DNA of 64,000 nucleotides. Origin: Escherichia phage PJNS034. The stretch lies in the sequence record PP391266.1; one strand, given 5' to 3'. Every line of letters begins with the position of its first letter. Within the stretch, counting starts at the first letter, position 1. The translations under genes and the position numbers were made by a program. Below are positions 1,377 through 60,904 of the stretch, piece after piece. The notes beneath the pieces are model-generated. The model saw only the letters and a program-made list of their open reading frames with translations, ran no database searches and had not been told where the DNA came from.

Positions 1377-1685
1377 ATGCCGTCAAGTCCTAACTATGTT
1401 CGTGACTACGACCAAGAACGCAAGACAGCCAAAAAGCGTGGTGAGACTGGTGTTGGTAAAAAGTCTGGTGACGCTCAGCGTCATCGTGCTCGTCGTAAGT
1501 TTGAGAAGGCAACAGGTCGCAAACTCGACAAAGACGAACACGTAGACCACAAACGTACAATTAAGAATGGAGGGACTAACAATCCTAAAAATCTTCGAGT
1601 GCGTAGCGCTTCTGATAATATGGCTGCTGGTGGTCGCAGTGGTAGTAAGGCGGGGAAAGCCGCCGGTGGTCGCAAAGGCAAGTAA
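1377..1685 (+). CDS. HNH endonuclease
   Basis: 102 aa; DEHVDHKRTIKNGGTNNPKNLRV matches HNH core; RBS GGAG before ATG. Confidence 0.55.
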   Translation: MPSSPNYVRDYDQERKTAKKRGETGVGKKSGDAQRHRARRKFEKATGRKLDKDEHVDHKRTIKNGGTNNPKNLRVRSASDNMAAGGRSGSKAGKAAGGRKGK

Positions 1686-2475: not shown

Positions 2476-4161
2476 TTGGCAAATATTTGGACAACTCCGC
2501 TCGCTTTGGAAGCGAAGATAGCAAACATTATCTCCAATCAAGGGAAACATGGTGTTAACTTCAACAAGGCCAAAGCAGCGTTCGGTGTGTTTGTTCTTGC
2601 AGAGAAGATTATAAACATCGACAAAGAGCTTGTCCCTATGCTTCCCATGATGATGCACGTGGGCACTGAATATAAGGCTCCATTCAAAGCGAATGGCGAC
2701 TTTAAGGTGTTTGTGCAGAAATATGCGGATAAGGTAGGGTTAAGTCGTTGCGATGTTGGTGGGCCGTTTACAGCGGTTCATTTCACACCATTTGACCCTT
2801 CCAAGACTGACCGCATGAAGCACGTCATGGCTGACGCTGGATGGGTTCCGGCAGTTTGGAATATCAAGAAGAATCCGATTCAAGAGTTGGATGGTCTTGG
2901 TTATATAGAGCGTCAGAATGCGGAAGCATTGCTTCTTGATAAGTATATCGAGAAGAACATCTTAGGTCATGGTGCTGCATGGACTGAGTTGATGTTGAAA
3001 GAGCTTAAATTCCGTGGACAGCGGAAGATTAGTAAGCTCAAAGAACACATCAGAAAGGCTCGTTATTGGCCTACTTCACCGAAGATTACACCAGATGAAG
3101 ACAAGTTCGTTGGTGATTCAAGAATCGGTGAATTAATTCAATCTCGTATGGTATGGTCACATCGTCGGTCATTACTTGAAGGATTGATTAAACTTGTCAG
3201 ACCAGATGGGAAGATTAGCGCTGATGCAAACAGTTGTGCAACACCCACTGCTCGTATGCGGCATCGTGGTGTGGTCAACATTCCTGCCGCTCGTGCTCCT
3301 TTTGGTTATTGGTGCCGAAGTCTTTTCATGGGAGACTATGACAAGACGGTTAAGAAAGGTTCTGTGTTCTATCCGTTTGGTAAGGAATTGCCAGAAGGAT
3401 TAAGACGTAAACCGGGCACAAACATTGTCGAGGAATACGACAAGAAGAAAGATAAATGGAAACACGCTGGTAAATATCGGAAGTTTGTTCCAGCGGGTCA
3501 ACATATCTTTGTTGGTTATGATGGTGCAGGTCTTGAACTTCGTATGTTGGCTCACTATGTTGGTGATGAAAACTTTACGAACCAGATTCTTCACGGTGAT
3601 ATTCATAGCCACAACCAGTCACTTGCTGGTCTTCCAACTCGTGATAACGCAAAGACGTTTATCTACGCATTCCTGTATGGTGCAGGTGATGCGAAAATCG
3701 GTTCTATCATCGGTGGTACTGCTGATGATGGTGCAGAAATCAAAGCTCGATTCATGAAATCACTTCCGAAACTTGCAGCACTGATTGAGCGTGTTCAACA
3801 GATTGCAGGAACTGATGGTTATGTCGAAGCGATTGATGGTCGTCGTTTGTATCTTCGTAAAGGTACGAATGGTAAGTATCAGACTCACAAAGCATTGAAC
3901 GTCTTGTTACAAGGTGCAGGTGCAATTGTCATGAAGTATGCGATGGCTTGGTTGGATTCTCAGATTAAGAAACAAGGTCTGAGGGCTTACAAGGTTATCG
4001 ACATGCACGATGAAGGGCAATTCTCAGTGCATCCTGATGATGTTCCAGCGGTTCGTGAACTGATGGAAAGTTGTGTTAAATGGGCTGGTGAGTTCTTGAA
4101 AATGAACTGTCCACTGGCATCCGATTCAATTGTTGGTCATGACTGGTTTGACACGCATTGA
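2476..4161 (+). CDS. DNA polymerase, family A, polymerase domain only (T7 gp5-like)
   Basis: 561 aa; motif A GYDGAGLELRMLAHY, motif B RDNAKTFIYAFLYGAG, motif C DMHDEGQF, C-terminal HDWFDTH; N-terminus aligns to T7 gp5 after its exonuclease domain; TTG start with AGGAAG RBS. Confidence 0.88.
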   Translation: MANIWTTPLALEAKIANIISNQGKHGVNFNKAKAAFGVFVLAEKIINIDKELVPMLPMMMHVGTEYKAPFKANGDFKVFVQKYADKVGLSRCDVGGPFTAVHFTPFDPSKTDRMKHVMADAGWVPAVWNIKKNPIQELDGLGYIERQNAEALLLDKYIEKNILGHGAAWTELMLKELKFRGQRKISKLKEHIRKARYWPTSPKITPDEDKFVGDSRIGELIQSRMVWSHRRSLLEGLIKLVRPDGKISADANSCATPTARMRHRGVVNIPAARAPFGYWCRSLFMGDYDKTVKKGSVFYPFGKELPEGLRRKPGTNIVEEYDKKKDKWKHAGKYRKFVPAGQHIFVGYDGAGLELRMLAHYVGDENFTNQILHGDIHSHNQSLAGLPTRDNAKTFIYAFLYGAGDAKIGSIIGGTADDGAEIKARFMKSLPKLAALIERVQQIAGTDGYVEAIDGRRLYLRKGTNGKYQTHKALNVLLQGAGAIVMKYAMAWLDSQIKKQGLRAYKVIDMHDEGQFSVHPDDVPAVRELMESCVKWAGEFLKMNCPLASDSIVGHDWFDTH

Positions 4162-5438: not shown

Positions 5439-5762
5439 ATGATTCTATCTGGCACTGTAAATCTTCAAACTGTTAACACTGAGAAGTTAGTAGAAATTGG
5501 TGAAGCTGTCTGCATCGCTATGGAGCAACGTAAGCAGCTCCTACGCAAGAAGTTCCGAAAGCATGGTAAGGATGCCCTTACTGACTTTGAACTCCGCCTG
5601 ATTGACGAGGCGCACGATTTGGGCACAGACTTCAACGAAGCACTGACTCTTGAATCAAAACGACACGATGAACAACTTGAATCTGACTTCGCTGCTATGA
5701 ACGCTGCTGATAACGTCGGTTCAGAAACATTAAAACTGTTAGACATTCCAGCAGAACGATGA
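5439..5762 (+). CDS. hypothetical protein
   Basis: 107 aa ORF. Confidence 0.35.
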   Translation: MILSGTVNLQTVNTEKLVEIGEAVCIAMEQRKQLLRKKFRKHGKDALTDFELRLIDEAHDLGTDFNEALTLESKRHDEQLESDFAAMNAADNVGSETLKLLDIPAER

Positions 5763-5805
5763 TACTCTAGGGCTTCCCGTTAGGGGAGAGTAAGAAATAA
5801 TATAA

Positions 5806-5831
5806 GGAATATTAGTAAGATATAATATTCC
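5806..5831 (+). promoter_or_regulatory. perfect 9-bp palindrome GGAATATTA-N8-TAATATTCC containing TATAAT
   Basis: Hairpin/operator-like element 25 nt upstream of ORF 5856 and the tRNA cluster; shares GGAATATTAsTAAGA with element at 47265. Confidence 0.4.
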
Positions 5832-5855
5832 TTAATATTACTCCTGAGGTGACTC

Positions 5856-6050
5856 ATGCTTGACTCAAAATGTTCACTATGCGGTTGCACTGGTATTCAT
5901 GCCTGTATGGGCAAGCCTTTAAGTGATGGTGTTATCTATTCAACTTACGGTAACACCGAAGTTAGAAAGTTAGCCGCGAAAGAGATTCAAGAAATCCAAG
6001 AATTATTGGAAAAGATTGTTGACACACAACCCAATAACTTGGTATCTTAA
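5856..6050 (+). CDS. hypothetical Cys-rich small protein
   Basis: 64 aa; RBS TGAGGTGA; CSLCGC...HAC. Confidence 0.35.
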   Translation: MLDSKCSLCGCTGIHACMGKPLSDGVIYSTYGNTEVRKLAAKEIQEIQELLEKIVDTQPNNLVS

Positions 6051-6137
6051 ATACATGGGGTGAGCAATCACCTCTTCCAGAAGTAGTTGGTGTCCACTGT
6101 CCCACAAGGGCTGAAACGGAACAGAACTTCTGGGTAT

Positions 6138-6215
6138 CTTGATGTAGCTCAGTTTGGTAGCAGCACTTGCTTTGGGAGCAAGGGGTCGAAGGTTCGAATC
6201 CTTCCATCAAGACCA
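6138..6215 (+). tRNA. tRNA-Pro (anticodon TGG)
   Basis: Manual cloverleaf: 7-bp acceptor CTTGATG/CATCAAG, anticodon arm CTTGC-TTTGGGA-GCAAG, T-arm GAAGG-TTCGAAT-CCTTC, 3' CCA. Confidence 0.7.
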
Positions 6216-6216
6216 A

Positions 6217-6298
6217 GTGGGATTGGCTGAGTGGTCGAAAGCACCTGACTGTAAATCAGGCATATCACGCGGTGGTTCGAATCCATCATCCCACACCA
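6217..6298 (+). tRNA. tRNA-Tyr (anticodon GTA)
   Basis: Acceptor GTGGGAT/ATCCCAC, anticodon arm CCTGA-CTGTAAA-TCAGG, long variable arm, TTCGAAT T-loop, CCA. Confidence 0.7.
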
Positions 6299-6300
6299 AA

Positions 6301-6377
6301 GCGTCACTAACTCAATTGGTTAGAGTAGCGGTCTTTTAAACCGCAGGTTCTGAGTTCGAGTCTCAGGTGGCGTACCA
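6301..6377 (+). tRNA. tRNA-Lys (anticodon TTT)
   Basis: Anticodon arm GCGGT-CTTTTAA-ACCGC, T-arm CTGAG-TTCGAGT-CTCAG, CCA. Confidence 0.7.
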
Positions 6378-6379
6378 AA

Positions 6380-6469
6380 GGAAGTTAGGGCTTTGTGGAA
6401 AGCAATCGGTCTTGAAAACCGACCCACTGTAGCGATATGGTGATGGTTCGACTCCATTAGCTTCCTCCA
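6380..6469 (+). tRNA. tRNA-Ser (anticodon TGA)
   Basis: Anticodon arm TCGGT-CTTGAAA-ACCGA, long variable arm, TTCGACT T-loop, CCA. Confidence 0.65.
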
Positions 6470-6471
6470 AT

Positions 6472-6548
6472 TGTTTCGTAGCTCAGTTGGTAAGAGCGTT
6501 CGGCTGATAACCGAAAGGTCACAAGTTCGAGTCTTGTCGAAACAACCA
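6472..6548 (+). tRNA. tRNA-Ile (anticodon GAT)
   Basis: Canonical cloverleaf: TGTTTCG/CGAAACA acceptor, GCTC-AGTTGGTAA-GAGC D-arm, TTCGG-CTGATAA-CCGAA, TTCGAGT T-loop, CCA. Confidence 0.8.
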
Positions 6549-6551
6549 AAT

Positions 6552-6640
6552 GACGGGTTGGCAGAGTTGGTTTATTGCAGCAGCTTGCTAAGTTGCCGAG
6601 TCGAAAGGCTCCGTGGGTTCGAATCCCACACCCGACGCCA
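6552..6640 (+). tRNA. tRNA-Ser (anticodon GCT)
   Basis: Anticodon arm GCAGC-TTGCTAA-GTTGC, long variable arm, GTGGG-TTCGAAT-CCCAC, CCA; one acceptor mismatch. Confidence 0.55.
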
Positions 6641-6641
6641 A

Positions 6642-6717
6642 GGACGATAAGCACATGTGGATGTGCGGCAGGCTGTTAACCTGATGGCAGTTGGTTCGAA
6701 TCCAACATCGTCCGCCA
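6642..6717 (+). tRNA. tRNA-Asn (anticodon GTT)
   Basis: Acceptor GGACGAT/ATCGTCC, loop CTGTTAA, T-arm GTTGG-TTCGAAT-CCAAC, CCA. Confidence 0.6.
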
Positions 6718-6719
6718 AT

Positions 6720-6794
6720 AGCGAGATAGTTCAGTGGTAGAATATCGGTTTCATACGCCGACCGTCGATGGTTCGATTCCATCTCTCGCTACCA
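6720..6794 (+). tRNA. tRNA-Met (anticodon CAT; elongator, initiator or lysidine-Ile not distinguishable)
   Basis: Acceptor AGCGAGA/TCTCGCT, anticodon arm TCGGT-TTCATAC-GCCGA, T-arm GATGG-TTCGATT-CCATC, CCA. Confidence 0.65.
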
Positions 6795-6810
6795 AACCTC
6801 TTTATCCGAT

Positions 6811-6882
6811 GGGAGTGTCCTTCTGGGAAGGATGTGGATTCCAACCCCACTAAGTAGAGTTCGATTCTTTACACTCCCGCCA
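6811..6882 (+). tRNA. tRNA, anticodon TCC (Gly) or alternatively CCA (Trp) depending on stem register
   Basis: Acceptor GGGAGTG/CACTCCC, loop region GGATTCCAACCCC, T-arm TAGAG-TTCGATT-CTTTA, CCA. Confidence 0.5.
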
Positions 6883-6889
6883 AATCCCT

Positions 6890-6966
6890 AGCCTTGTAGT
6901 GTAGTCTGGTTAGCACACGTGACTTTGACTCACGGAGCTTAGGTTCGAATCCTGACAGGGCTGCCA
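6890..6966 (+). tRNA. tRNA-Gln (anticodon TTG)
   Basis: Acceptor AGCCTTG/CAGGGCT, anticodon arm CGTGA-CTTTGAC-TCACG, T-arm TTAGG-TTCGAAT-CCTGA, CCA. Confidence 0.7.
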
Positions 6967-9846: not shown

Positions 9847-10119
9847 ATGAGCGCATTAAATACTATGGTTGGTGGTTCACACTATCAGGCAGAAGGTGGC
9901 ATTCAGCCGATTCAGTTCTACCACGCAAATCCACAGTTGAACTTTCAACAGTGTAATATGATTAAGTATGCTTTCCGTCACAAAGATAAGAACGGTTTGC
10001 AGGACTTACTCAAGGTTGTGCATTATGCCATGCTGGAGGCAGAGTTCCATTATCCGAAAGAAGATGTTGAGAAGTGGAAGTTACAGGTAGCGAATCTGAT
10101 TGACCCACCTGCTTTTTGA
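9847..10119 (+). CDS. hypothetical protein
   Basis: 90 aa ORF. Confidence 0.35.
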   Translation: MSALNTMVGGSHYQAEGGIQPIQFYHANPQLNFQQCNMIKYAFRHKDKNGLQDLLKVVHYAMLEAEFHYPKEDVEKWKLQVANLIDPPAF

Positions 10120-10178: not shown

Positions 10179-10487
10179 ATGAACATGATTTACTCTAACG
10201 CACATTACGCAATCTACTTCGTACCGAACGGTACTCCTGAGAAAGAACACGACTTTACCAAGCAGTTCACCATCGTGAATATGCACCTCGGTACTGTCGA
10301 AGCTCAGGTTGGTTCTTTCCCACATGCTGTACAGTATTGCGATGTGTTTGCTGCTGATTGGGAAGCACTGGTAATGAATGCAAAAGGCCAGTTCAATCCT
10401 GAGATTCAGGGCAACGATAATGGTGCTGATAAAGCCGAAGCAAAAGCTGGTCTGAAACTGGCAACTGTGGATGGTGAAAACGTATAA
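10179..10487 (+). CDS. hypothetical protein
   Basis: 102 aa ORF. Confidence 0.35.
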   Translation: MNMIYSNAHYAIYFVPNGTPEKEHDFTKQFTIVNMHLGTVEAQVGSFPHAVQYCDVFAADWEALVMNAKGQFNPEIQGNDNGADKAEAKAGLKLATVDGENV

Positions 10488-11512
10488 TGAGCAAAATCCC
10501 CGTATGTAAGACAACACGACCTACGGTGGATTTAGCACTCATTGACGCAGACGTACTGCGTTACGAATTAGGGGCTGTGCAACTAGACCATCCTTATATC
10601 AAGGGTGAGAAGGTTCCAGCCCCTTCCTCGTTTGTTGAGGGCTTAGTTCAAGACCGTATTGAAACTATTCTGGACAGAACTGGTGCGAAAGACTTCTTAT
10701 TGTTCCTCACAGGGCCGGGAAACTTCCGGTTTGATATTGCCAAACAGCAACCATATAAAGGCAACCGAGAAGATTTTGAAAAGCCTTTCCATTGGAAGAC
10801 TGTTGACCGTTACCTCCGAACCGTTTATCCCTCCAAAATCCGTGAAGCATTCGGTAACGAGGCAGATGATGAATTGGGCATTACTCAATTACGTTCTGTC
10901 CTCGCAGGGGATAAGGATAACACCTGCATCGCTTCTCGTGACAAAGACCTGAGAACAGTGGAAGGATGGCATTACTCTTGGGCATGTGGTGAAGACCAGC
11001 CTGAGAAACCACTACGTTACATCACTCAGCTTGAAGGTTATCGCTTCTTCTTCCAACAGATGCTTACTGGTGATAACACTGATAACATCATTGGTTGTGG
11101 TAAAAAGAAAGAAGTGATGTGGGGTGGTAAGCTCATGATGCGGCGTAAAGGCGTGGGCAAGAAAACTGCTGAGAAGTTACTTGCAGAGCTTGAGAACCAA
11201 CAACAAATGTACGATGTTGTTCGTGAACAGTATGTCGAAGTGTTTGAGGATGAAGCTGATACAGTGATGCTCGAACAAGCTCGGTTATTGTTTATTGGAC
11301 AGACTGAGAAACAACAATTTAAATGGCACTGGATTGAGGTGGTTGAATATGGAATTGGCTCCGAAGAAAGCGAAGTTGTGGAAGGAAAAGAACCTGAAGG
11401 GACGTTGGATGTTCCTGAGGAAAATCGACGGAGTGAGAGCACTTCGGAACCTAGACCCAACGATTCCAGCGAAGTATGTGAGCCGGAATGCGAAACCTCT
11501 GTACAATCTTGA
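10487..11512 (+). CDS. 5'-3' exonuclease (T7 gp6-like)
   Basis: 341 aa; LALIDADVLRY, YKGNRE, EADDELG, SRDKDLRTV, TGDNTDNIIGCG align to conserved blocks of T7 gene 6 exonuclease; C-terminal about 55 aa overlap the ligase gene. Confidence 0.7.
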   Translation: MSKIPVCKTTRPTVDLALIDADVLRYELGAVQLDHPYIKGEKVPAPSSFVEGLVQDRIETILDRTGAKDFLLFLTGPGNFRFDIAKQQPYKGNREDFEKPFHWKTVDRYLRTVYPSKIREAFGNEADDELGITQLRSVLAGDKDNTCIASRDKDLRTVEGWHYSWACGEDQPEKPLRYITQLEGYRFFFQQMLTGDNTDNIIGCGKKKEVMWGGKLMMRRKGVGKKTAEKLLAELENQQQMYDVVREQYVEVFEDEADTVMLEQARLLFIGQTEKQQFKWHWIEVVEYGIGSEESEVVEGKEPEGTLDVPEENRRSESTSEPRPNDSSEVCEPECETSVQS

Positions 11513-12047
11513 CCACTTGGAGTTTGATGATGCTGAAATCTTTAATCAAAATTGGGAAACTTCCGTTTCAATGGTGCGTACTCATTGTGCGGCTCCTGTT
11601 CCTGCTGATTGCGTTTATCGTCTTGGTGATGGTCAGACCGATTCACGATTATACTTGTTCACGGTGCAAGACCCAACCGAAGAGTTCATTCGGAAGCATC
11701 TGGAAGAAGCTCTGGCGAAAGGTGATGAAGGCTTAATATTAAGGGAGGCCGATGTTGACGACCCGAAATGGCTCAAAGTCAAAAATAAAGAAACTCATGA
11801 CGTGGTGGTTACGGGTTATCAGCCGGGCACCGGTAAGCATGAAGGACGGATGGGTGCTCTACTTACGACGAGAGGCAAAGTTGGTACAGGCTTCACAGAC
11901 AGTGAACGAGACTACTGGCAGCAACGCTGGGAAGAGGGTACTGTCGTAGGTGTTACGATTGAGGTGGAATGTATGGAGTTAACTTCCACTGGTAAATTCA
12001 GACACCCACGCTTTATCCGTGAACGCCTTGATAAAGATGGCGAATAG
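11349..12047 (+). CDS. ATP-dependent DNA ligase (compact)
   Basis: Motif I KIDGVR, motif IV-like DEGLILR, motif V WLKVK, motif VI FRHPRFIRERLDKD; ATG at 11349 with GAGGTGG RBS; only about 233 aa. Confidence 0.7.
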   Translation: MELAPKKAKLWKEKNLKGRWMFLRKIDGVRALRNLDPTIPAKYVSRNAKPLYNLDHLEFDDAEIFNQNWETSVSMVRTHCAAPVPADCVYRLGDGQTDSRLYLFTVQDPTEEFIRKHLEEALAKGDEGLILREADVDDPKWLKVKNKETHDVVVTGYQPGTGKHEGRMGALLTTRGKVGTGFTDSERDYWQQRWEEGTVVGVTIEVECMELTSTGKFRHPRFIRERLDKDGE

Positions 12048-12267
12048 CAGTATATTAACTAAGGTCACTTCGGTGGCCTTTTCTTTCATCTAACTATAGG
12101 CAAAACAATGAAACAGGCTGTATTTGATTTCGCTTCTCGCATGGTCGATAAGCTGACTGCTGATTATGACAAAGCAGAAACCTCTGACGTTGCAGAACGC
12201 ATCATGTCAGAACTCAAAAACTACATCAAAATGCGTGATGATGCACAACGTTCTCTGGAGAAAGCTA

Positions 12268-12807
12268 ATGCGTAAGGTTTATATTGCAGGTCATATGTTA
12301 ACTCGTGGTGCTCAGATGCAACGTGCTGAGGAACGTGAGCTGGTATCTTCTTTGGGTCATCAACTCTACAACCCAATGGACAACAAGGAAATTAACGACA
12401 AGAAGCTCCACAAGGACGATACAGGGCTGGCTGAACGAATCGTTAAGCAAGACACCGACGCTATTTTCTGGGCTGATACAGTGCTGATTGAGCCGCTTGC
12501 TGAGGCAAATGGCACTCTGGTTGAGTTAGGACAGATTAAAGGTATGAAAGACCTCGCCAAGAAGCTGATGGAGTTACCTGCAACAAATGAGATTGAGTTC
12601 GCTGACCAAGCAATTGAATTGCTCAAACGAATCCTAGACCAGAAGGTTGTTGCTCACTTCGAAGATATCCGACGTGTCGAAGGTATCACCGAAACAGGCG
12701 ACCGTCGCTCTCTTGGCATTAACCAGTATGTATATGGTACTGTCCTTGACCTGACAGATGGCAAAGGCTTCACTGAGTTTAAAGACTTGCCGGAGGCTCT
12801 TGCTTGA
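12268..12807 (+). CDS. nucleoside 2-deoxyribosyltransferase / Rcl-like N-glycosidase family protein
   Basis: N-terminal VYIAGHM and C-terminal NGTLVELG match the NDT-family Rossmann and catalytic-Glu motifs; ATG 12268 with GGAG RBS. Confidence 0.55.
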   Translation: MRKVYIAGHMLTRGAQMQRAEERELVSSLGHQLYNPMDNKEINDKKLHKDDTGLAERIVKQDTDAIFWADTVLIEPLAEANGTLVELGQIKGMKDLAKKLMELPATNEIEFADQAIELLKRILDQKVVAHFEDIRRVEGITETGDRRSLGINQYVYGTVLDLTDGKGFTEFKDLPEALA

Positions 12808-13466
12808 ACTGGAGATTAATATGGTCAGTCTTTGCCGTGCTATCCATTCTGTTTGGGTGCGTTGTTTCAAAAGCAAGTTACGAAGTAATGGCGACGTCCC
12901 TAGTGGGCGTCATGTTCGTGATAGGGGTAGCCTTCAAGAAAGCAAGTGCGAATCTTTTGGGGGCTATACTGTGCGCTATGCTTGGGTTGATGAGCTGGCA
13001 AGCTGGATACTACATGAACGCGATTATCAACATCTTCTTATTGCTACCACTCCAGTTATTAGCTTACGCCAATTGGACGACAGGGGTGTCGAAGCGAGAG
13101 CATCACAGGTACTTGGTGGAAACGGTCTGTCGCAAACGATTCTTGATTTACACATGTTGGCTAATTCCTCTCTTGGTAGCCGCATACTTCTCAGGCAGCC
13201 GTTTGTGGGTACACGATGCTGTGACAGCCTCACTTGTGATTGTCGCAACACTTCTCCTCATGTTCAATACCAAAGAGCAATGGCAATTCTGGATTCCATA
13301 CAATCTGGTAGAAGTCTTCATGTGGTTCATCGCAGCGAGTACAGCCCCTGAAATGCTTGCAATTATGTTCATGCGTATTGTATTCTTCATTAACAGTCTG
13401 ATTGGCTATTACGAATGGAGGAACGATGGCAATCCACGGACGCTACTTTCGACAGAAACCCGCTGA
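12804..13466 (+). CDS. PnuC-like (nicotinamide riboside/nucleoside transporter family) membrane protein
   Basis: 220 aa, multiple TM segments, AYANW...KREHH region resembles PnuC signature; start codon uncertain (TTG 12804 or downstream ATG). Confidence 0.4.
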   Translation: MNWRLIWSVFAVLSILFGCVVSKASYEVMATSLVGVMFVIGVAFKKASANLLGAILCAMLGLMSWQAGYYMNAIINIFLLLPLQLLAYANWTTGVSKREHHRYLVETVCRKRFLIYTCWLIPLLVAAYFSGSRLWVHDAVTASLVIVATLLLMFNTKEQWQFWIPYNLVEVFMWFIAASTAPEMLAIMFMRIVFFINSLIGYYEWRNDGNPRTLLSTETR

Positions 13467-13887
13467 GTTAAAAGGTACTGACTATGACTCACGTCTTGAG
13501 AAAAGGCTGCATGAGGCGCTTCCCGTCCTCAACCACCATCCAGCGAAAAGGCCGTATGTTCGACACCATACCTACGAGCCAGATTTCGAAGTACAAGGAA
13601 ACAAGACATATCTTGTTGAAGCCAAAGGTTACTTCCAAGACCGTAACGAACTTGGCAAGTACCTCCCCATTGCGGAGTCTCTGGGCGATAGTGCTGAGTT
13701 GGTATTTGTGTTTGAGAATGCCGACAAACCAATCCACTTCCAAGCCAAACGTAAGGATGGAAGCAAAATGACACATCGTGAGTGGTGTGTTAAGAATGGA
13801 TTTCAAGTCTTTGACGAGGATGAGTTCCGAGTATGGATTCCAAGTGTTACTACTGTGACGGAATCGGGAGACACAGAGCTTTCGTAA
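13426..13887 (+). CDS. endonuclease I / Holliday-junction resolvase (T7 gp3-like)
   Basis: HTYEPDF and LVEAKG (T7: HTYTPDF, FVETKG) catalytic blocks, C-terminal HREWCVKNGFQVFD; ATG 13426 with GGAGGA RBS. Confidence 0.7.
   Translation: MAIHGRYFRQKPAELKGTDYDSRLEKRLHEALPVLNHHPAKRPYVRHHTYEPDFEVQGNKTYLVEAKGYFQDRNELGKYLPIAESLGDSAELVFVFENADKPIHFQAKRKDGSKMTHREWCVKNGFQVFDEDEFRVWIPSVTTVTESGDTELS
13849..13860 (+). repeat. 12-mer ACTACTGTGACG, copy 4
   Basis: Exact, codons near 3' end of endonuclease I gene. Confidence 0.9.
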
Positions 13888-54360: not shown

Positions 54361-55170
54361 ATGACGATTCGCCTGATTACTCTTGGTGCTGACCCTGAAA
54401 CTATTGTTGCTCGCAACGGTGTTCCAACTCACGCTATTGGTCTTATCGGCGGTACTAAGGAAGAACCACGTAAGATTATCCGTGGTGGTCGTGAAGTTGG
54501 TGCGGTGCAGGAAGATAATGTCCTGTATGAGTTCAACATCATGCCACACGATACTCGTCAGGGATTCATTGACAACATTCAGCAGATGTTGGAAGTGGGT
54601 CGTGAGATTCTGGGTGATGGTTACGAAATCACTAATAAGACTTCTCACATCTTCTCTGATGAAGACATGGCTCATTTCCCTGACTCAGCGTTTATCTTCG
54701 GTTGTGAACCGGATTTCTTCGCTGGTAATGGTGAGATGAATCCGAAGCCTGCTGCACCGTGGCCGGGTCTGCGTACCGCAGGTGGTCATGTTCACTTCGG
54801 GTTCGATGAGCGTGTAGTTCGTGATGATGAGAATGTTCGTTCTCTGATTCAACTGTGCGATATGTATATGGCGTTGCCGTCAATGCTTCTGGACACTGAC
54901 GACCTGCGTAAAGAACTGTATGGTAAGGCCGGTGCATTCCGTCCGAAAGCATATGGTGCTGAATATCGTACACTGTCAGGTTTCTGGATTCATAATCCTG
55001 AAAATACTGGCTTCGTGTTTGACCAAGCGCAGAAAGCGTATGATGCGTTGGCAACTGGTCTGGGTCGTGAGATGTTGGCACGTTTCCCATACGAACTGGT
55101 TGTCGATATCATCAACAGCAATGACCGTGGACGTGCTGAACGTGCCCTGAAAGTTATGCAGGTTGCATAA
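54361..55170 (+). CDS. amidoligase-like (GCS2/carboxylate-amine ligase-like) protein, divergent paralog
   Basis: 269 aa; GGHVHFGFD (H-x-H) and GAEYRTLSGFW (E-x-R) as in GCS2-type ligases; N-terminal E-x-E replaced by D-P-E. Confidence 0.4.
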   Translation: MTIRLITLGADPETIVARNGVPTHAIGLIGGTKEEPRKIIRGGREVGAVQEDNVLYEFNIMPHDTRQGFIDNIQQMLEVGREILGDGYEITNKTSHIFSDEDMAHFPDSAFIFGCEPDFFAGNGEMNPKPAAPWPGLRTAGGHVHFGFDERVVRDDENVRSLIQLCDMYMALPSMLLDTDDLRKELYGKAGAFRPKAYGAEYRTLSGFWIHNPENTGFVFDQAQKAYDALATGLGREMLARFPYELVVDIINSNDRGRAERALKVMQVA

Positions 55171-55352
55171 TGGAAGAAGGTCTGCTGATTAGCTGGGTTG
55201 AATCTCCAGCGAACCGTAAGACCAAGACTCATACCCTCTTCTTCGAAAGCCTGGACGAGGGTTATGAGTTCATGGCCTCTAAAAGTTGTGTAATTCAAGT
55301 ACAACGCATTCCACTGGTGAGAAAGAATGGCGAAACTGGTAACGGTAAATAA
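55170..55352 (+). CDS. hypothetical small protein
   Basis: 60 aa, ATG overlapping upstream stop. Confidence 0.3.
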   Translation: MEEGLLISWVESPANRKTKTHTLFFESLDEGYEFMASKSCVIQVQRIPLVRKNGETGNGK

Positions 55353-55518
55353 CGCAGATAAAACTGTAACTCGTCGTGTCTTTATGGACAACGAAGAGGG
55401 TATCATGTGGGCAGTTGACCAAGCCCGCACAGCACTGTCAGTCGTGACTGATGATGTGGAAGTGGTCGAGGCTTCCAGCCGTAAAGGTTGGGAAGGTCAT
55501 ATCGCATGTGATTGCTAA
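55327..55518 (+). CDS. hypothetical small protein
   Basis: 63 aa ORF. Confidence 0.3.
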   Translation: MAKLVTVNNADKTVTRRVFMDNEEGIMWAVDQARTALSVVTDDVEVVEASSRKGWEGHIACDC

Positions 55519-55542
55519 TTTAAACTGAACGAGAGAACTAAA

Positions 55543-56151
55543 ATGTCAATCAATATGTCAAGTGGTGATTTACGTCTGTATTGGGGTGGGTGTTATGCAC
55601 CTGTTGCATGGGATGCAGCAGATAGTGGCGTAGCAACACTGGTAATTCACGACGTTCGTGTGATAAATCCAATGTCACGTGACTACACCGAAGCACGAGT
55701 TCAAGGTGAACTATTCTTCATTCGTAATGGAGAAGAGGCTCGTGGTAATTTTGAAGGTCGTATGTCTGACCTCCTCGGTGATGGGTTCACCACTCCTCAA
55801 CGCAATATCGGTTATATCCGTGTTCACGGTCAACCGTATTGGATTACCTTCAAACGTCGTCGTACAAATCGTAAAGGCATCACCAATGACCGTCTGGCTG
55901 TGTATGTAGCTGGGCATCGTGGTGAAGCAGGTTTGAACTTCGGTAGTGATGTGTTGTGTCGTCTGTATGCAACCTTTGATGGTCGTATCTCTGATGATTT
56001 CTGTATTCATCAGAACATGATTCATTATAAAGGTGTGGTTGTCGGACGTTATGAGCGTCACAATCGTATTGTATTAGCTGAACGTTTTGCGTATCTTAGC
56101 TGGTCGCTGGAACGTATCGGTGGTTACGACGTAACGGTGGAGGTTGAGTAA
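55543..56151 (+). CDS. hypothetical protein
   Basis: 202 aa; RBS GAGAGAA. Confidence 0.4.
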   Translation: MSINMSSGDLRLYWGGCYAPVAWDAADSGVATLVIHDVRVINPMSRDYTEARVQGELFFIRNGEEARGNFEGRMSDLLGDGFTTPQRNIGYIRVHGQPYWITFKRRRTNRKGITNDRLAVYVAGHRGEAGLNFGSDVLCRLYATFDGRISDDFCIHQNMIHYKGVVVGRYERHNRIVLAERFAYLSWSLERIGGYDVTVEVE

Positions 56152-56975
56152 TGATTATTGCTGACATTTTAGGGCATGGTCGTGGGTCGGATGTTGTTGA
56201 TACGCATCCGTTGATTGTTGGTCGAGGCCGTGTAGGACTCGAATTAGAACTGGAGAATATGCCAAATGCTCGACAAGCTGCTGGTTGGACAGTTACTGGT
56301 GACGGTTCTCTGCGTAATAGCGGCGTGGAATATGTACTCCGTGGTGCTCAGGGAGGTATGGAGTTATTTAATTCGATACTTTCTCTGGAAGAAGCACTCA
56401 TGGCACATCAATGTGATGCTAACCTTCGCTGCTCTACTCACGTTCACCTTGATATACGTCGGCTCACTGTGGCTCAACTCAAGCGTTTACTTCTGGCTTA
56501 TACAGTCTTTGAGCCATTAATCTTTGAGTTGTCCGGTGCGCATCGTCGTACTAACAACTTCTGTCCGTCGTTTAGTTTCGCTCAGCAACAAATTCGTAAG
56601 CTGAGTAACAACTGGCATCATGATGGTGAACGATTCCTTGCTCGTATTGTGGAAGGTCGTGACCGCCAATCCAGTGATAAGTATTCAGCACTGAATCTGG
56701 TTCCAATCTTCACTCAGGGTTCTGTAGAGTTCCGTGGTGCAGAAGCGAAGCCAAGTGCAGGTAAGATGATTCGTCTGGCTAACCGTATTCTAAGTCTGTA
56801 TGACTTAGCGGTTAACTCTGATATGAATCAGTCTGATGCTGAGTTCATTAACTCACTGGCGAACCTTGATGTTCAACAGGCATTGATGGGTACGATTCCT
56901 CGTGACTTCGAACTCAGCGAAGAACTGGTGAATGAAGGACGTGTCTTAGCGTTCGATATTATCTCTCTGGGGTGA
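56151..56975 (+). CDS. amidoligase (GCS2-like carboxylate-amine ligase)
   Basis: 274 aa; VGLELELE (E-x-E), CSTHVHLD (H-x-H), GSVEFRGAE (E-x-R): the three signature blocks of gamma-glutamyl-cysteine-synthetase-2-like amidoligases. Confidence 0.55.
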   Translation: MIIADILGHGRGSDVVDTHPLIVGRGRVGLELELENMPNARQAAGWTVTGDGSLRNSGVEYVLRGAQGGMELFNSILSLEEALMAHQCDANLRCSTHVHLDIRRLTVAQLKRLLLAYTVFEPLIFELSGAHRRTNNFCPSFSFAQQQIRKLSNNWHHDGERFLARIVEGRDRQSSDKYSALNLVPIFTQGSVEFRGAEAKPSAGKMIRLANRILSLYDLAVNSDMNQSDAEFINSLANLDVQQALMGTIPRDFELSEELVNEGRVLAFDIISLG

Positions 56976-56976
56976 C

Positions 56977-57192
56977 ATGAGCTGGAACGAACGAGAGTAT
57001 CGTAAACCAAAGTTGGGCACTGTATGTGTCCACTTCGAACCTTCGTATAAGTCAACCTTTGGAAGTACGAAGAAGTTCCCTAACGCATCGTTCTACTTGA
57101 GTACGAACGGTGTAATCATCATCCGTGATATGGATGGTGACAACATCTGTGCATACCCTGAAGGTGTGTGGCTGAATGTTGAAATGAAGTGA
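56977..57192 (+). CDS. hypothetical small protein
   Basis: 71 aa ORF. Confidence 0.3.
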   Translation: MSWNEREYRKPKLGTVCVHFEPSYKSTFGSTKKFPNASFYLSTNGVIIIRDMDGDNICAYPEGVWLNVEMK

Positions 57193-57202
57193 TTAACTCA
57201 AG

Positions 57203-57224
57203 CCCTTCTTCGGGAGGGTTTTAT
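57203..57224 (+). terminator. terminator/attenuator hairpin in conserved cassette (UUCG loop)
   Basis: stop-TTAACTCAAG, CCCTTC-TTCG-GGAGGG, TTTTATGG. Confidence 0.5.
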
Positions 57225-57278
57225 GGTAATCATTACCACAAACTATTGAAACTAACTATTGAACTTGAGGAAAGTATT

Positions 57279-58871
57279 ATGTGCGGAATCGTTGGAATTA
57301 TGCGTGGCGTTATGACTGAAGGTATGGTGGACATGTTTGAACAACTGCTGTATGCAGATGTGTTCCGTGGCCCGCACTCCACTGGCGTCTATCGTGTTAA
57401 TAAAGATGGTCAATCAGGGTTGTATAAGGATGCAGTACCTGCGTCTTTATATCTTGGCTCGAAAGGCTGGGATGATTTACGTGGGAATCTGAATGGAACT
57501 GCTGGTCATCAGGCACTGTCTCAAGTTTATGTTGGTCATAACCGTTGGGCAACTGTAGGTGCAGTTAACGCTGTGAACTCACATCCATTCAAGTGCGGTA
57601 ACATCACGATGGTACACAATGGTACTGTTGCGAAGTGGCGTTTGAATGACCACCTGAAGTATGACGTTGATAGTCATGCGGTGTGTGCGATGTTGGATTC
57701 ACATGGTCTGGCTGAAACTCTGAAAGTTCTGGATGGTAAGTTTACTCTGGTGTGGCATGACGCATCTGATAACACCATGAACTTTATCCGTAATGCAGAA
57801 CGTCCTCTGCACATGGTTGAGTTCACTGATGGTGGTTGGGCGTTTGCATCAGAAGGTGAGATGTTAACGTGGATTAATGGTCGTCGTAAGACCCCGTTTG
57901 GTATTAAACGTGCTTTCGAACTGCCAGTTGGCTTCCATCATAAATTCCAGTTATCCGCGAGCAAAGTAGAGCTTGCGGAGGTCGTTAAGTACGAACTCCC
58001 AAAGTTCACCAGCTACGCCAGCAACAGCACGTATTATCCAAACCGAAGCTCAGTCGCAAGCAGCAGCGCAAGCTCAACAAACTCAGAAAGCGCAACCGCT
58101 AGACGTGTGCGTCTGATGAAAGAGTGGGGCATTGACGTTGGAGACCGCAAAGATGTAGAGAACATGATTGTGTCTCTGGATAACATCGCGTTCACAGCGT
58201 ACTCAACCAATGCAGCATCAGGTCGTATTGATGCAGACGCATGGGGTTACGATGAAGCTGTTGATGCCTGTGATGCTGGTCATATGGAAATTGACTGTAA
58301 GCGTGGTGGTAAAACTGAAGATGTTCAGGTAACAGTTTACGGTGTTGATACTGTTAAGTGGAAAGACAACTACTCTCAGGGCGACCGTCTGTACGGTAAG
58401 ATTGACAGTGTGTTTGAATCCACTGAGCATGGCAAGACTCGTCTTCGTATCACTTTGAAACCACTGACTCTGTGTACTGAGTTGGCTGATGGCGTTGAAG
58501 CCTTTAATGAGAAAGTGTTCCCGCTCCTCATTAAGAAAGAGGCCGAAAAGGTTGATGCCGACAAAAGTAAATCAGATGTTGCAGGAAGCACTGGAAGCGC
58601 AGGAACTGCAACTGGTCAGGGAACTCAGTTATCGGTTGTAGTGGATAACACTGCAAAAAAGCCGGAAGGTACGGACTCATCAAGCGGCTCGCCGAACTTG
58701 TTCAACATGTCCGCAATTCCAATGAGTCTTAAAGACTTGCGTGAAGACAAGCTGAGTTGTGCTTGGTGCGGAAATGCAATCCACGAACATAACTACGAAA
58801 TGTCTGATATGTTCTTTAAATCTCACATCTGCCCAGATTGTGCCAAGGAGTTACCGGGTTATGGCGACTGA
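57279..58871 (+). CDS. class-II glutamine amidotransferase (Ntn hydrolase) domain protein with C-terminal extension and Zn-ribbon
   Basis: N-terminal Met-Cys-Gly-Ile-Val-Gly (catalytic Cys after Met removal), Ser-rich linker, C-terminal CAWCG...CPDC. Confidence 0.55.
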   Translation: MCGIVGIMRGVMTEGMVDMFEQLLYADVFRGPHSTGVYRVNKDGQSGLYKDAVPASLYLGSKGWDDLRGNLNGTAGHQALSQVYVGHNRWATVGAVNAVNSHPFKCGNITMVHNGTVAKWRLNDHLKYDVDSHAVCAMLDSHGLAETLKVLDGKFTLVWHDASDNTMNFIRNAERPLHMVEFTDGGWAFASEGEMLTWINGRRKTPFGIKRAFELPVGFHHKFQLSASKVELAEVVKYELPKFTSYASNSTYYPNRSSVASSSASSTNSESATARRVRLMKEWGIDVGDRKDVENMIVSLDNIAFTAYSTNAASGRIDADAWGYDEAVDACDAGHMEIDCKRGGKTEDVQVTVYGVDTVKWKDNYSQGDRLYGKIDSVFESTEHGKTRLRITLKPLTLCTELADGVEAFNEKVFPLLIKKEAEKVDADKSKSDVAGSTGSAGTATGQGTQLSVVVDNTAKKPEGTDSSSGSPNLFNMSAIPMSLKDLREDKLSCAWCGNAIHEHNYEMSDMFFKSHICPDCAKELPGYGD

Positions 58872-59154
58872 TAAAATTGTAATTCGTATGCCGAAAGACG
58901 ACATTGAATGTGAGCGGAAATATCCGTTCACTTACTTCATGAATGCAGCGCTGCGTGGTATGCAGCGTCGCTACTCTGAACAAGCGTCGGCAAAGTTTGG
59001 TAGTGAAGTTGAGATTCTATTCCCAACTGCATTATCAAAAATGATTCATGACCACATGGTCACTCTGTATCAACAGGAAGGATTCGAACTCGCTGAAGAA
59101 GATTTCGAAGACTCCGAACAATACCGCAAATATCTGAAACTAATTAAGGGCTAA
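58861..59154 (+). CDS. hypothetical protein
   Basis: 97 aa from ATG overlapping upstream stop. Confidence 0.35.
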   Translation: MATDKIVIRMPKDDIECERKYPFTYFMNAALRGMQRRYSEQASAKFGSEVEILFPTALSKMIHDHMVTLYQQEGFELAEEDFEDSEQYRKYLKLIKG

Positions 59155-59159
59155 AACAA

Positions 59160-60653
59160 ATGCTGCGTATCTTCAACTACAACAACGGTTCTCAAGGTCT
59201 GGGTGCTCTGCGTGAACATGTAGAGCCATTGATTCGTGAGATGAATACTCATCGTGGTTTCCGTAACATTCGTCCGGTTATGGGTAGCGAGAATGGTTCT
59301 GCTCGTCTGTTTCAGGCGACTAACCGCTTCATTATGAACTGGGGTTCTTCGCAACCCCTGAACACTGATGAAAGCAACTTCGTTCTCAACAAACCGGAAG
59401 CTGTTGGTTTAGCAACTCATAAACTCCGCTTCTTCCAACATGTTCACCAGTGGAACCAAGAGAAGATTGCTCAGGGTGTGAATGGCCTGACTGTTCCGAT
59501 TCCTGAGTGGACAACTTCTCGTGATGAAGCTCAGACTTGGGCAGGGCATGACCATCTGGTTTATGCCCGTCAACGTCTGCAAGGTCATAGCGGTGAAGGT
59601 ATCGAAGTATACGGTATCAATCAGGTTGTTGAACGTGCTCCACTGTACACCAAAGGCATCATCGGTGCTCGTCGTGAGTATCGTGTTCATGTCATTGCTG
59701 GTCAGGTGGCACTGGTTCAGTTGAAGAAACGCCGCAATGGTGGTGAGGCTGTGGGCAATGGTAATGACCATGTTCGTAACCTCGGCTCTGGTTGGGTGTA
59801 TGCAGTAAGTGATGCTCGTCCATCACCAGTCGTATTGAGTGCAGCACAGAATGCAGTTCGTGCTCTGGGTCTGGACTTTGGTGCGGTAGACATTATCGCT
59901 AAAGGTCGTAAAGGTCAGGAGCGTGAGTGCTGGGTGTTGGAAGTTAACACTGCACCGGGTCAGCGTGGTGATACTACTGTGACGCTGTATGCTCGTGCTG
60001 TTGCATCGGCATATGCAATCTGGATGAATCGTGATAGCGTTGACGTCCGTGATTTAGGAGGTGTCAAAGCTGCATGGGAAACACTTCCTTGGCTGAACGA
60101 TGAAACCTTCCTTGCTCTGATGCGTGATGAAGGTGCAGATGGTTCGGTACTTCTGCGTTCTCAGCGTGAAACTCAGGCAGCAGAGGCAGAAATGCCTAAC
60201 ACTGACGATGATGTGGCGGCAGATGAAAACTTTGCCCTTCCTGCTGATGAACTGACACCTGCTCGTGCAACCTCTGGTGCTCATGTAGTTCACACTGGTA
60301 CTCGTTGGGTTGATGTAGAAGCAGCACCTCAAGTTCGTGCTGAGCCTGTACGTCGTCGTGACGGTGAGCCAATGCCGTTCAATGGTAATCCATTCGATGC
60401 ACGTATTCGTCGTGAACCTGCACCACGTCCTGCACCTGAACCGGTTGTAATGCCAGAACGTCGTGTCATGTTGTCTCGTCTGGGACAGAATGACCCACAG
60501 AACGAACAGTTCGTGGTATTCACATGGAACGGTCGTCGTGAAGTCGGTGTAGTCAATACTCGTCTGGGTGTTGTTTACATGGCTGGTAGCGAAGTTCAAC
60601 TTCCACTGGCTCAGGTTGATTTGATTGCGGTAGTTGATACCGAAATTCGTTAA
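59160..60653 (+). CDS. ATP-grasp family ligase (RimK-like) with C-terminal extension
   Basis: 497 aa; GEGIEVY, EYRVHVIAG, LGLDFGAVDII, WVLEVNTAPG (E-x-N) ATP-grasp blocks; about 200-aa extension. Confidence 0.5.
   Translation: MLRIFNYNNGSQGLGALREHVEPLIREMNTHRGFRNIRPVMGSENGSARLFQATNRFIMNWGSSQPLNTDESNFVLNKPEAVGLATHKLRFFQHVHQWNQEKIAQGVNGLTVPIPEWTTSRDEAQTWAGHDHLVYARQRLQGHSGEGIEVYGINQVVERAPLYTKGIIGARREYRVHVIAGQVALVQLKKRRNGGEAVGNGNDHVRNLGSGWVYAVSDARPSPVVLSAAQNAVRALGLDFGAVDIIAKGRKGQERECWVLEVNTAPGQRGDTTVTLYARAVASAYAIWMNRDSVDVRDLGGVKAAWETLPWLNDETFLALMRDEGADGSVLLRSQRETQAAEAEMPNTDDDVAADENFALPADELTPARATSGAHVVHTGTRWVDVEAAPQVRAEPVRRRDGEPMPFNGNPFDARIRREPAPRPAPEPVVMPERRVMLSRLGQNDPQNEQFVVFTWNGRREVGVVNTRLGVVYMAGSEVQLPLAQVDLIAVVDTEIR
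59973..59984 (+). repeat. 12-mer ACTACTGTGACG, copy 8
   Basis: Exact, codons 272-275 of ATP-grasp gene. Confidence 0.9.
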
Positions 60654-60682
60654 TTGCTTTAGGGTATTCTTCGGAGTACCCT

Positions 60683-60904
60683 ATGTCGATTGAACCGAAC
60701 GAGGAATATATGAAAGTATGGGTAGTTATGTTCCAAGAGTATGACCTAGCCGAAGTGCTGGAAATCTACTCGAAGGAAGAAGATGCTATAGCACATCGTC
60801 AGGCTGAAATTGATAAGAGCTTGTCATACGCTAAGAAGTGGAATGTCAAACCACACCCTGCGCTCGAACAGTTTTATACAATTCACGAAAAAGAGGTAAA
60901 GTAA
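60683..60904 (+). CDS. hypothetical small protein
   Basis: 73 aa ORF. Confidence 0.3.
   Translation: MSIEPNEEYMKVWVVMFQEYDLAEVLEIYSKEEDAIAHRQAEIDKSLSYAKKWNVKPHPALEQFYTIHEKEVK

Follow-up and report, generated by a model that had tools for sequence, protein, structure and literature searches.

An enzyme of the nucleoside deoxyribosyltransferase superfamily paired with a PnuC-like transporter in Escherichia phage PJNS034: a candidate phage cassette for deoxynucleoside salvage

Introduction

Transporters of the Pnu family are facilitators without an intrinsic direction; they do not transport the phosphorylated forms of their substrates, and their genes are typically co-localized with that of a kinase that traps the substrate (PMC5749112). 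In NARP3, shown in 2026, a phage PnuC-like nicotinamide riboside (NR) transporter (Bas30_87) and a NadR-like protein (Bas30_86) together import NR and rebuild NAD+ (PMC13464706), an arrangement of PnuC with NadR that had been anticipated earlier (10.1101/2024.02.11.579819). Since NARP3, phage PnuC homologues are read as NAD+ counter-defence genes. Here we describe a two-gene cassette of Escherichia phage PJNS034 (PP391266.1) in which a PnuC-like gene directly follows the gene for an enzyme of the nucleoside 2-deoxyribosyltransferase (NDT) superfamily. The whole stretch of DNA that we analysed, called the window below, is 64 kb long and represents a nearly complete lytic phage genome. The PnuC-like protein belongs to a separate clade that is almost confined to phages, and the surroundings of the gene pair in related phages point to the salvage of deoxynucleosides.

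For the enzyme, the closest described systems are class II NDT of L. leichmannii (LlNDT; PDB 1F8X, EC 2.4.2.6), the nucleotide N-glycosidases DNPH1/Rcl and MilB/BlsM, and the phage enzyme DmtZ. DmtZ hydrolyses dAMP and transfers the deoxyribose-5-phosphate to a base, an activity that has been attributed to its Tyr and Pro together with a small uncharged residue of the 5' pocket (PMC12884076). In the same work the active-site Tyr is held to exclude ribo-substrates, the transferase Pro is thought to shield the active site from water, and an Asp/Asn of the 5' pocket, the Asp lying six residues before the Glu of the active site (position E-6), is described as binding the nucleoside 5'-OH in NDTs. 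Rcl and DNPH1 have a phosphate-binding Ser (S87 and S98, respectively; PMC10603095). For the transporter, a deoxynucleoside-specific Pnu subfamily, PnuN, was predicted earlier (Rodionov & Gelfand 2005, according to a citation in PMC7749635). Genes related to the two studied here are already labelled 'nucleoside 2-deoxyribosyltransferase' and 'PnuC-like' in GenBank phage records. Our literature search found no paper joining PnuC, a deoxyribosyltransferase and phages, and the one paper with both in phages treats their functions separately (PMC6669764).

Results

The first-pass annotation of the window, made from the sequence, had placed an NDT/Rcl-type enzyme next to a PnuC-like transporter. Both open reading frames (ORFs) are present at the coordinates it gave (Table 1), and the motifs that it quoted for the enzyme, MRKVYIAG and NGTLVELG, are found in the protein, which PJNS034 lists as hypothetical. 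Hidden Markov model searches agree with the assignment: the enzyme matches PHROG 1817 ('nucleoside 2-deoxyribosyltransferase') over its full length (E 3.3e-50), and PF05014 weakly, over residues 4-93 only (E 3.4e-6; the 27.6 bits fall just short of the gathering score, 28.8), the latter profile being matched by 68 of the 70 family members at E <= 1e-3. The flavodoxin-like alpha/beta core of the protein superposes on solved NDT, Rcl or MilB structures. The NDT-like core, which contains Y5, P36, D62, A80 and E86, makes up the N-terminal half (about 95 residues); the C-terminal half is family-specific and Arg-rich (H130, D133, R135, R136, D145, R146, R147).

The family is small: of 1.84 billion cluster representatives, 230 belong to it at E <= 1e-3. 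It is also unusually well conserved, with 33 columns invariant in an alignment of 70 members drawn from phages and (pro)phage-like loci of Escherichia, Vibrio, Proteus, Aeromonas, Bacillus and their relatives. Identity exceeds 50% across Escherichia/Pantoea, Proteus and Vibrio phages and the (pro)phage loci of Bacillus and its relatives; Staphylococcus phages carry homologues at about 31-37% identity. Some members are longer. P0243 (380 aa) has an N-terminal guanylate-kinase-like domain (PDB 6MFU, E 1.9e-4), and both P0194 and a 393-aa protein of locus L026 (4971-6152) combine the NDT-like domain with a C-terminal extension of 200 aa that has no match. Nearly all the N- or C-terminal extensions of the longer members had no match in our query set, P0243 alone being informative.

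The sequences of LlNDT and rat Rcl were checked against 1F8X and 2KHZ and then aligned with the family. Y5, D62 and E86, all invariant in the 70 sequences, are the counterparts of Y7/D72/E98 in LlNDT and of Y13/D69/E93 in Rcl. P36, within the motif Y-x-P-x-D-N, is likewise invariant and aligns with Pro42 of LlNDT. Position E-6 is Ala80 in at least 90% of the family, as against Asp92 in LlNDT and Ser87 in Rcl, and the base-binding Gln46 of LlNDT corresponds to Lys40. Five Arg are invariant (R19, R135, R136, R146, R147), and a low-confidence loop that follows the last strand of the core holds four of them. With Ala at E-6, the family lacks there the Ser that binds phosphate in Rcl and DNPH1, and the site of the second Ser, contributed by the partner subunit, is not reliably alignable because the C-terminal half diverges; MAFFT could not align this half to the beta5/Asn123 region of NDT or Rcl.

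Taken together, these residues suggest that the substrate of the enzyme is of the 2'-deoxy type and may carry a 5'-phosphate, as that of DmtZ does. Because Ala80 replaces the Asp that would bind the 5'-OH and five Arg are invariant, we consider it somewhat likely, and propose tentatively, that the enzyme works on 5'-phosphorylated substrates as a phosphodeoxyribosyltransferase like DmtZ. The NDT/Rcl-type assignment thus stands at the level of the superfamily and fails for NDT proper: since the defining Asp is absent, we do not regard the protein as a bona fide EC 2.4.2.6 enzyme. Besides the substitutions of Asp92 and Gln46, it differs from class II NDT in that only about 90 residues superpose, the C-terminal half being here the family-specific Arg-rich extension.

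With DmtZ it shares its phage origin, the NDT superfamily, the Tyr/acid/Glu triad, a transferase Pro and a small uncharged residue instead of the Asp (here Y5, P36 and A80), as well as genetic linkage to other enzymes of the nucleotide pool. However, no close sequence relationship was detected, and Gordonia/Wayne-like phages are absent from the tblastn matches. DmtZ is also shorter (about 145 aa), lacks the Arg-rich C-terminal half and has no linked transporter. Moreover, it acts in the dZ pathway with PurZ0 and DutZ, neither of which was found here: adenylosuccinate-synthetase-like and dUTPase families gave no match among the window ORFs scanned, a set that does not include every small ORF. 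The closest solved relative by sequence is 7M5H, a structural-genomics 'nucleoside 2-deoxyribosyltransferase' of Enterococcus faecalis V583 (profile E 1.6e-6), which shares the ENxxINDK motif and a D-x-R motif after the last strand. It differs in keeping Asp at E-6 and in lacking both the helical insert and the GDRRSLG loop; its function is unassigned.

The resemblance of the membrane protein to PnuC is borne out by both profile and structure comparison. It scores above the cut-offs of PF04973 (E 1.6e-21, 77.5 bits against 27.3) and TIGR01528 (E 1.7e-20, 73.8 bits against 42.45), matches PHROG 1880 (E 1.1e-40), and finds the NR transporter 4QTN by phmmer (E 6.8e-11). Its AlphaFold2 model (pLDDT 88.2) has eight helices in the 3+1+3 helical fold with an optional N-terminal helix, as in 4QTN, which is also the Foldseek match (TM-score 0.82 over 217 columns, E 8e-9; nothing else below E 0.1). 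Hallmarks of Pnu proteins are a WxxW(x)3D/N motif in transmembrane (TM) helix 6 and gate Trp residues at the ends of TM3 and TM7 (PMC5749112). Here the motif reads W160-Q-F-W163-I-P-Y-N167, and of the gate residues W91 is invariant and W205 conserved in at least 90% of a 48-sequence alignment of the clade. The gene starts with a TTG that overlaps the stop codon of the enzyme gene (TTGA) and follows a GGAGG Shine-Dalgarno (SD) sequence at 12792-12796 by seven bases; the start is supported by conservation of the N-terminus from the TTG in homologues (W7, A11). Given the overlap and the SD sequence, the translational coupling that had been claimed for the pair is plausible.

Within the clade of this transporter mean identity is 45%, while mean identity to E. 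coli PnuC, N. mucosa PnuC and three NadR-linked phage PnuCs is 24%. The clade is sharply bounded: a collection of 5.8 billion proteins holds 52 clusters scoring 182-321 bits, the next match having 72 bits. In 185,579 bacterial species genomes it occurs at two loci only, as a lone chromosomal gene in Endozoicomonas and on a 2-kb phage-like contig filed under Herbiconiux, and the bacterial surroundings are uninformative at both. The clade is thus separate from the NR-type PnuCs and almost phage-only. Three distant phage PnuCs that we sampled (Klebsiella KP13-26, Vibrio ICP1 and Bacillus Kirov) all adjoin a NadR-like gene. The Herbiconiux contig (L040; NZ_JANLCJ010000054.1, Herbiconiux daphne, 2043 bp) carries the phage-type PnuC-like gene and behind it, in the order of the window, one for an endonuclease I-like protein; the former is annotated as a bacterial PnuC, and the contig is probably phage DNA in the assembly.

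Like NARP3, the cassette is a two-gene phage unit of a Pnu facilitator, with the same transporter fold and motifs, and a cytoplasmic enzyme that would act on the imported nucleoside. It differs in that the partner is NDT-like rather than NadR, that the window has no NMNAT or RNK gene, that the transporter clade is only about 24% identical to the NR-type and NadR-linked proteins, and that the surrounding genes belong to deoxynucleoside triphosphate (dNTP) rather than NAD+ metabolism. We therefore do not count the cassette as NARP3, of which NadR is the defining part. The transporter resembles PnuN as a Pnu protein whose predicted substrate follows from a link to deoxyribonucleotide metabolism instead of NAD genes. 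PnuN itself is bacterial (Lactobacillus) and was predicted through NrdR regulation, and the likeness drawn here is one of genomic context. To our knowledge, PnuN has so far remained uncharacterized.

The two genes travel together. In cultured phages the PnuC-like clade comprises 69 records at E <= 1e-20 (Vibrio 51, Proteus 8, Cronobacter 6, Aeromonas 2, Pantoea 1, Escherichia 1), and matches to the NDT-like protein at E <= 1e-35 cover the same genera plus eight more Aeromonas and 32 Clostridium phages. In all 35 accessions common to both listed match sets the NDT-like gene lies upstream on the same strand, at a gap of 0-1407 nt (median 47), and all seven IMG/VR loci retrieved with the transporter profile were also found with the enzyme profile. 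The cassette is carried by T5-like Demerecviridae, by Grimontviridae, by TacPo2-like phages and by 90-100 kb phages of Proteus, Cronobacter and Aeromonas; because these backbones are unrelated, we conclude that it has moved horizontally as a unit. A gene for a DUF3310 protein occurs in the window (Table 1), in L003 (5952-6221) and in L055 (4747-5004); in Cronobacter phage A24 and a metagenomic relative a near-identical one stands between the two cassette genes. The PHROG suggestion 'kinase' for this protein is wrong and arises through fused family members.

The neighbours of the cassette in relatives (loci are cited by their L numbers) are largely genes of DNA precursor synthesis. A thymidine kinase (TK) gene (PF00265, E 4e-51) lies directly 3' of the PnuC-like gene in L029, L050, L052 and L053. 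In L010-13 a deoxynucleoside monophosphate (dNMP) kinase of PHROG 139 is encoded between the two genes and a TK 2 kb upstream, and L054 has the order MazG-like, NDT, PnuC-like, NrdD and PF01712 deoxynucleoside kinase (dNK). NrdD follows the cassette in Proteus and Cronobacter phages. In the Aeromonas LAh phages the NDT-like gene, here without a transporter, is directly followed by a dNMP kinase gene, beside genes for class Ia ribonucleotide reductase (RNR) and thioredoxin.

Loci of the Gram-positive type encode the NDT-like enzyme without a Pnu partner. Their neighbours are ThyA and dihydrofolate reductase (DHFR; L031, in the order NDT, ThyA, DHFR), NrdI/NrdE (L005), and dUTPase with a dNMP kinase (L007-9). 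NCS2 permeases (xanthine/uracil family) are encoded beside or near NDT-like genes in L026 (8768-9886), L032 (7047-8171) and L035-37 (5468-6754); L035 also has a formate/nitrite-transporter-like gene, with NrdD/NrdG upstream. In Gram-positive-type phage or prophage loci (L005, L018-L022, L030, L031, L034) the NDT-like gene is followed by one for a conserved protein of about 205-240 aa (PHROG 8902, no Pfam match), which may be a functional partner in the transporter's stead. The Bacillaceae prophage-like locus L007-L009 has, two small ORFs 3' of the NDT-like gene (about 7123-7473 in L007), a 114-aa protein with a weak match to the NAD+-dependent DNA ligase Ia domain (PF22745), and about 5.5 kb upstream a gene for an ECF-transporter S-component.

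No gene for NadR, NMNAT or Nampt turned up in the window or in the roughly 30 NDT-linked loci, where three phage NadR queries gave no match (phmmer, E <= 1e-4). Neither tblastn nor phmmer matched TK, ThyA, DHFR, dNMP kinase, dNK, NCS2 permease or NadR anywhere in the window, and PADLOC models gave no match. PJNS034 therefore carries the two-gene core only.

In PJNS034 the pair lies among replication genes, as had been stated: exonuclease, ligase and endonuclease I-like genes flank it, and DNA polymerase and primase-helicase are also encoded in the window. Pantoea phage TacPo2 is 83% identical in DNA to the region, all its genes being labelled 'hypothetical'. The endonuclease I-like gene shares 41 nt with the 3' end of the PnuC-like gene and keeps the same order in TacPo2, A24, LAh_9, L052 and L055; it is a syntenic neighbour outside the salvage function. 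The ATG of the enzyme gene follows a GGAGA SD sequence at 12257-12261 and overlaps the stop codon of a 55-aa ORF, which has no family match in Pfam or PHROG. This ORF is conserved in TacPo2 (40% identity) and weakly resembles small ORFs 5' of NDT in other lineages; given that weakness, we did not count it as a confirmed member of the module. The hairpin upstream of it, a pattern match of a consensus scan, may mark the upstream edge of the transcription unit, although sigma-70 and terminator scans showed no enrichment against shuffles. A phage-type promoter was also sought upstream, and the candidate TCTAACTATAGG at 12089 recurs no more often than chance predicts.

Table 1. Positions of the cassette genes and of other features in the 64-kb window
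Feature	Position	Strand	Remarks
NDT-superfamily enzyme, 179 aa	12268..12807	+	PHROG 1817, PF05014
Pnu-family (PnuC-like) facilitator, 220 aa, 8 TM helices	12804..13466	+	PF04973, TIGR01528, PHROG 1880
55-aa ORF	12108..12275	+	stop codon overlaps NDT start (ATGCGTAA)
Terminator-like GC hairpin, then T-rich tract	12061..12080	+	between ligase gene and 55-aa ORF
5'-3' exonuclease	10487-11512	+	flanks gene pair
ATP-dependent ligase	11295-12047	+	flanks gene pair
Endonuclease I-like (T7 gp3-like)	13426-13887	+	PF05367 E 5e-7; PHROG 945 E 4e-27
HNH/endonuclease VII-like ORF	1377-1685	+	just 5' of DNA polymerase ORF
DNA polymerase	2476-4161	+	
Ten tRNA genes	6138-6966	+	Pro, Tyr, Lys, Ser x2, Ile, Asn, Met, Trp, Gln
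DUF3310 protein	9847-10119	+	
Primase-helicase	running off window end	+	
Virion module	14 to 42 kb	-	
Virion protein, 1610 aa	14022-18854	-	C-terminal lysozyme-like domain (PHROG 27932)
Amide-bond enzyme cluster	54361-61311	+	

Other features of the window were noted along the way. The tRNA genes have a counterpart in TacPo2, with eleven genes at the same place and a partly different set. The DNA polymerase ORF covers only the C-terminal polymerase part of PHROG 17 (836-1233 of 1445) and, with the HNH/endonuclease VII-like ORF before it, the gene may be split or interrupted. The ligase, which has both a KIDG motif and an OB domain, is unusually short (about 231-250 aa); its ORF shares about 200 nt with the region of the exonuclease ORF that encodes an acidic C-terminal tail. 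The 1610-aa virion protein contains long low-complexity stretches rich in Pro/Ala/Glu and in Lys/Glu and probably represents an internal protein that is ejected. Finally, a cluster encoding a COOH-NH2 ligase, an amidoligase, a GlmS-like glutamine amidotransferase, a RimK/S6-glutaminyl-transferase-like ATP-grasp protein and a gamma-glutamyl cyclotransferase resembles a system for a peptide- or amide-bond metabolite or modification.

Discussion

By analogy with described systems, the closest functional parallel of the cassette would be a Pnu transporter coupled to an enzyme that traps or processes the substrate, the enzyme itself being most like DmtZ or an engineered phosphodeoxyribosyltransferase. 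We propose, with moderate confidence and from sequence comparison, that the pair imports deoxynucleosides and exchanges their bases, feeding the dNTP pools of the phage. The PnuC-like protein would be a facilitated-diffusion carrier that admits 2'-deoxynucleosides into the infected cell, and net uptake would depend, as for every Pnu transporter, on conversion of the substrate in the cytoplasm, here through phosphorylation by host thymidine kinase. Trapping would have to rely on the host, because PJNS034 lacks such kinases of its own; in relatives a TK, dNK or dNMP kinase is encoded beside the cassette and could take over this step. As Pnu genes are co-localized with that of a trapping kinase, and the kinases linked to this clade in the NDT-linked loci examined are TK and dNK and never NadR, the substrate is likely a deoxynucleoside (thymidine where the kinase is TK). 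Using Tyr5, Asp62 and Glu86, the enzyme would take up the deoxyribosyl group in a covalent intermediate and then transfer it to a different base, so that imported or host-derived deoxyribose could be redistributed among A, G, C and T/U to match the demand of the phage. If the chemistry takes place at the level of dNMPs, the enzyme might hand these directly to a dNMP kinase; the guanylate-kinase-like fusion of P0243 and the adjoining dNMP kinase gene of the LAh phages would be in keeping with this. A narrower version combines a natural phosphodeoxyribosyltransferase, which swaps bases on dNMPs, with a deoxynucleoside-specific Pnu carrier that would be the first of assignable function; as a whole, it strikes us as rather unlikely.

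Several points weigh against this proposal. PJNS034 encodes no TK, dNK or dNMP kinase. Enterobacteria already have NupC and NupG for nucleoside uptake, so an additional carrier need not be of benefit. The Pnu motifs are common to the whole family; TIGR01528, passed by our protein, is an 'equivalog' model for the NR transporter PnuC. The NR contacts of N. mucosa PnuC (PMC13464706) were mapped with an offset of 25 (Q99, Q171, N189, Y217), and the four positions do not separate the clades: N is conserved, and T, F and Q/S are also found in NadR-linked phage PnuCs. We dropped these residues as a substrate test for that reason, and the sequence is thus compatible with NR transport as well. The argument for dNMPs consists of one substituted residue, conserved Arg in a low-confidence loop and gene adjacency, and the nearest solved relative, 7M5H, keeps the Asp at E-6. 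In addition, N152 (Asn or His in the family) is possibly equivalent to the 5'-OH-binding Asn123, a match of GINQYVYG to PINLMSWG made by eye and uncertain. In one preprint, two NDTs of phages with unmodified genomes, which may or may not be related to the family studied here, showed no purine-deoxynucleoside transglycosylation (10.1101/2025.10.22.683976).

The first-pass annotation had offered dNTP supply, replenishment of NAD+ against NAD-depleting defences and exchange for a non-canonical base as uses of the pair. Its family assignments and its idea of phage-directed salvage of an imported nucleoside are consistent with our results, and among its options dNTP supply is favoured, since TK, dNK, dNMP kinase, NrdD, ThyA/DHFR and permease genes adjoin. 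Replenishment of NAD+ would mean that the PnuC-like protein imports NR as in NARP3 and that host NadR converts it to NAD+, with the enzyme acting on NR or nicotinamide mononucleotide (NMN) or being unrelated. The passed PF04973 and TIGR01528 models, the sole structural match to the NR transporter 4QTN, NR-contact positions that are not clearly altered and the presence of NadR in enterobacterial hosts are all in keeping with it, and phage PnuC with NadR has been shown to counter Sir2-HerA (PMC13464706). Nonetheless we judge it unlikely: no NadR, NMNAT or Nampt was seen in the window or the roughly 30 linked loci searched, whereas the sampled distant phage PnuCs adjoin NadR in each case, the clade is sharply bounded at about 24% identity to NR-type PnuCs, and the linked kinases are TK and dNK. 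The partner enzyme moreover retains the Tyr said to exclude ribose substrates (PMC12884076), and it would have no role on the path from NR to NAD+, yet it is linked to the transporter in every record that can be cross-checked. Loading of an unusual imported base or nucleoside onto deoxyribose (or deoxyribose 5-phosphate), as DmtZ does with 2-aminoadenine (PMC12884076), is in keeping with the dedicated importers beside the enzyme; NDT is also associated with dZ phages (10.1101/2025.10.22.683976), and PJNS034 has several early genes that lack annotation. The window itself, however, offers no support for this option, which we consider very improbable. No PurZ/PurA-like, hydroxymethylase/ThyA-like or other known modification gene was seen among the ORFs scanned, the neighbours TK, ThyA, DHFR and RNR belong to canonical pathways, and the conservation of the enzyme from Escherichia/Pantoea, Proteus and Vibrio phages to (pro)phage loci of Bacillus and its relatives, with more distant homologues in Staphylococcus phages, is more easily reconciled with a universal metabolite than with a base peculiar to one lineage.

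The pair could also serve to remove rather than acquire nucleotides, an Rcl/MilB-like N-glycosidase destroying host-derived, damaged or defence-made (deoxy)nucleotides while the Pnu facilitator lets the products or deoxynucleosides out. T5-like phages are known to discard the breakdown products of host DNA, and about 50 carriers of the cassette are T5-like Vibrio phages. Pnu carriers have no intrinsic direction (PMC5749112), and the Ala in place of the 5'-OH-binding Asp recalls the small residues of hydrolases (PMC12884076). The family retains, however, the transferase Pro P36, thought to keep water out (PMC12884076), and lacks the phosphate-binding Ser of Rcl and DNPH1, while the adjoining TK, dNK, dNMP kinase, RNR and H+-coupled NCS2 importer genes indicate acquisition, so that clearing or export seems quite improbable. 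Lowest of all we would place counter-defence, in which the enzyme, with a fold resembling TIR and NDT domains, cleaves the N-glycosidic bond of a nucleotide immune signal or an antiviral nucleotide analogue. Its conserved Arg suggest a phosphorylated ligand, and enzymes degrading immune signals are frequent in phages, but the lack of a PADLOC match, the strictly linked transporter that would be left without a role and the constant neighbourhood of nucleotide metabolism make this extremely unlikely.

Deoxynucleoside salvage remains the reading that we prefer, and its consequences reach beyond PJNS034. With 69 records in at least three unrelated phage groups, the clade is a second phage PnuC lineage, at least as common in cultured phages as the one associated with NAD+. 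Annotation of the cassette genes as NAD+ transport or anti-defence genes is probably wrong, because their surroundings point to deoxynucleoside salvage. If our proposal is right, it would provide a first function for a Pnu transporter of the deoxynucleoside type, and a widespread phage family would join the short list of NDT-superfamily enzymes with altered 5' pockets (DmtZ and engineered phosphodeoxyribosyltransferases), which are also biocatalysts of interest for nucleotide analogues. Were the narrower, dNMP-swapping version true, a deoxynucleoside imported into a host that has only TK could be trapped as dTMP or dUMP and turned into all four dNMPs, giving a kinase-sparing, RNR-independent route to balanced dNTP pools that could blunt dNTP-depleting defences. 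More generally, the salvage proposal would mean that lytic phages invest in the import of external DNA precursors, beyond the recycling of host DNA and RNR.

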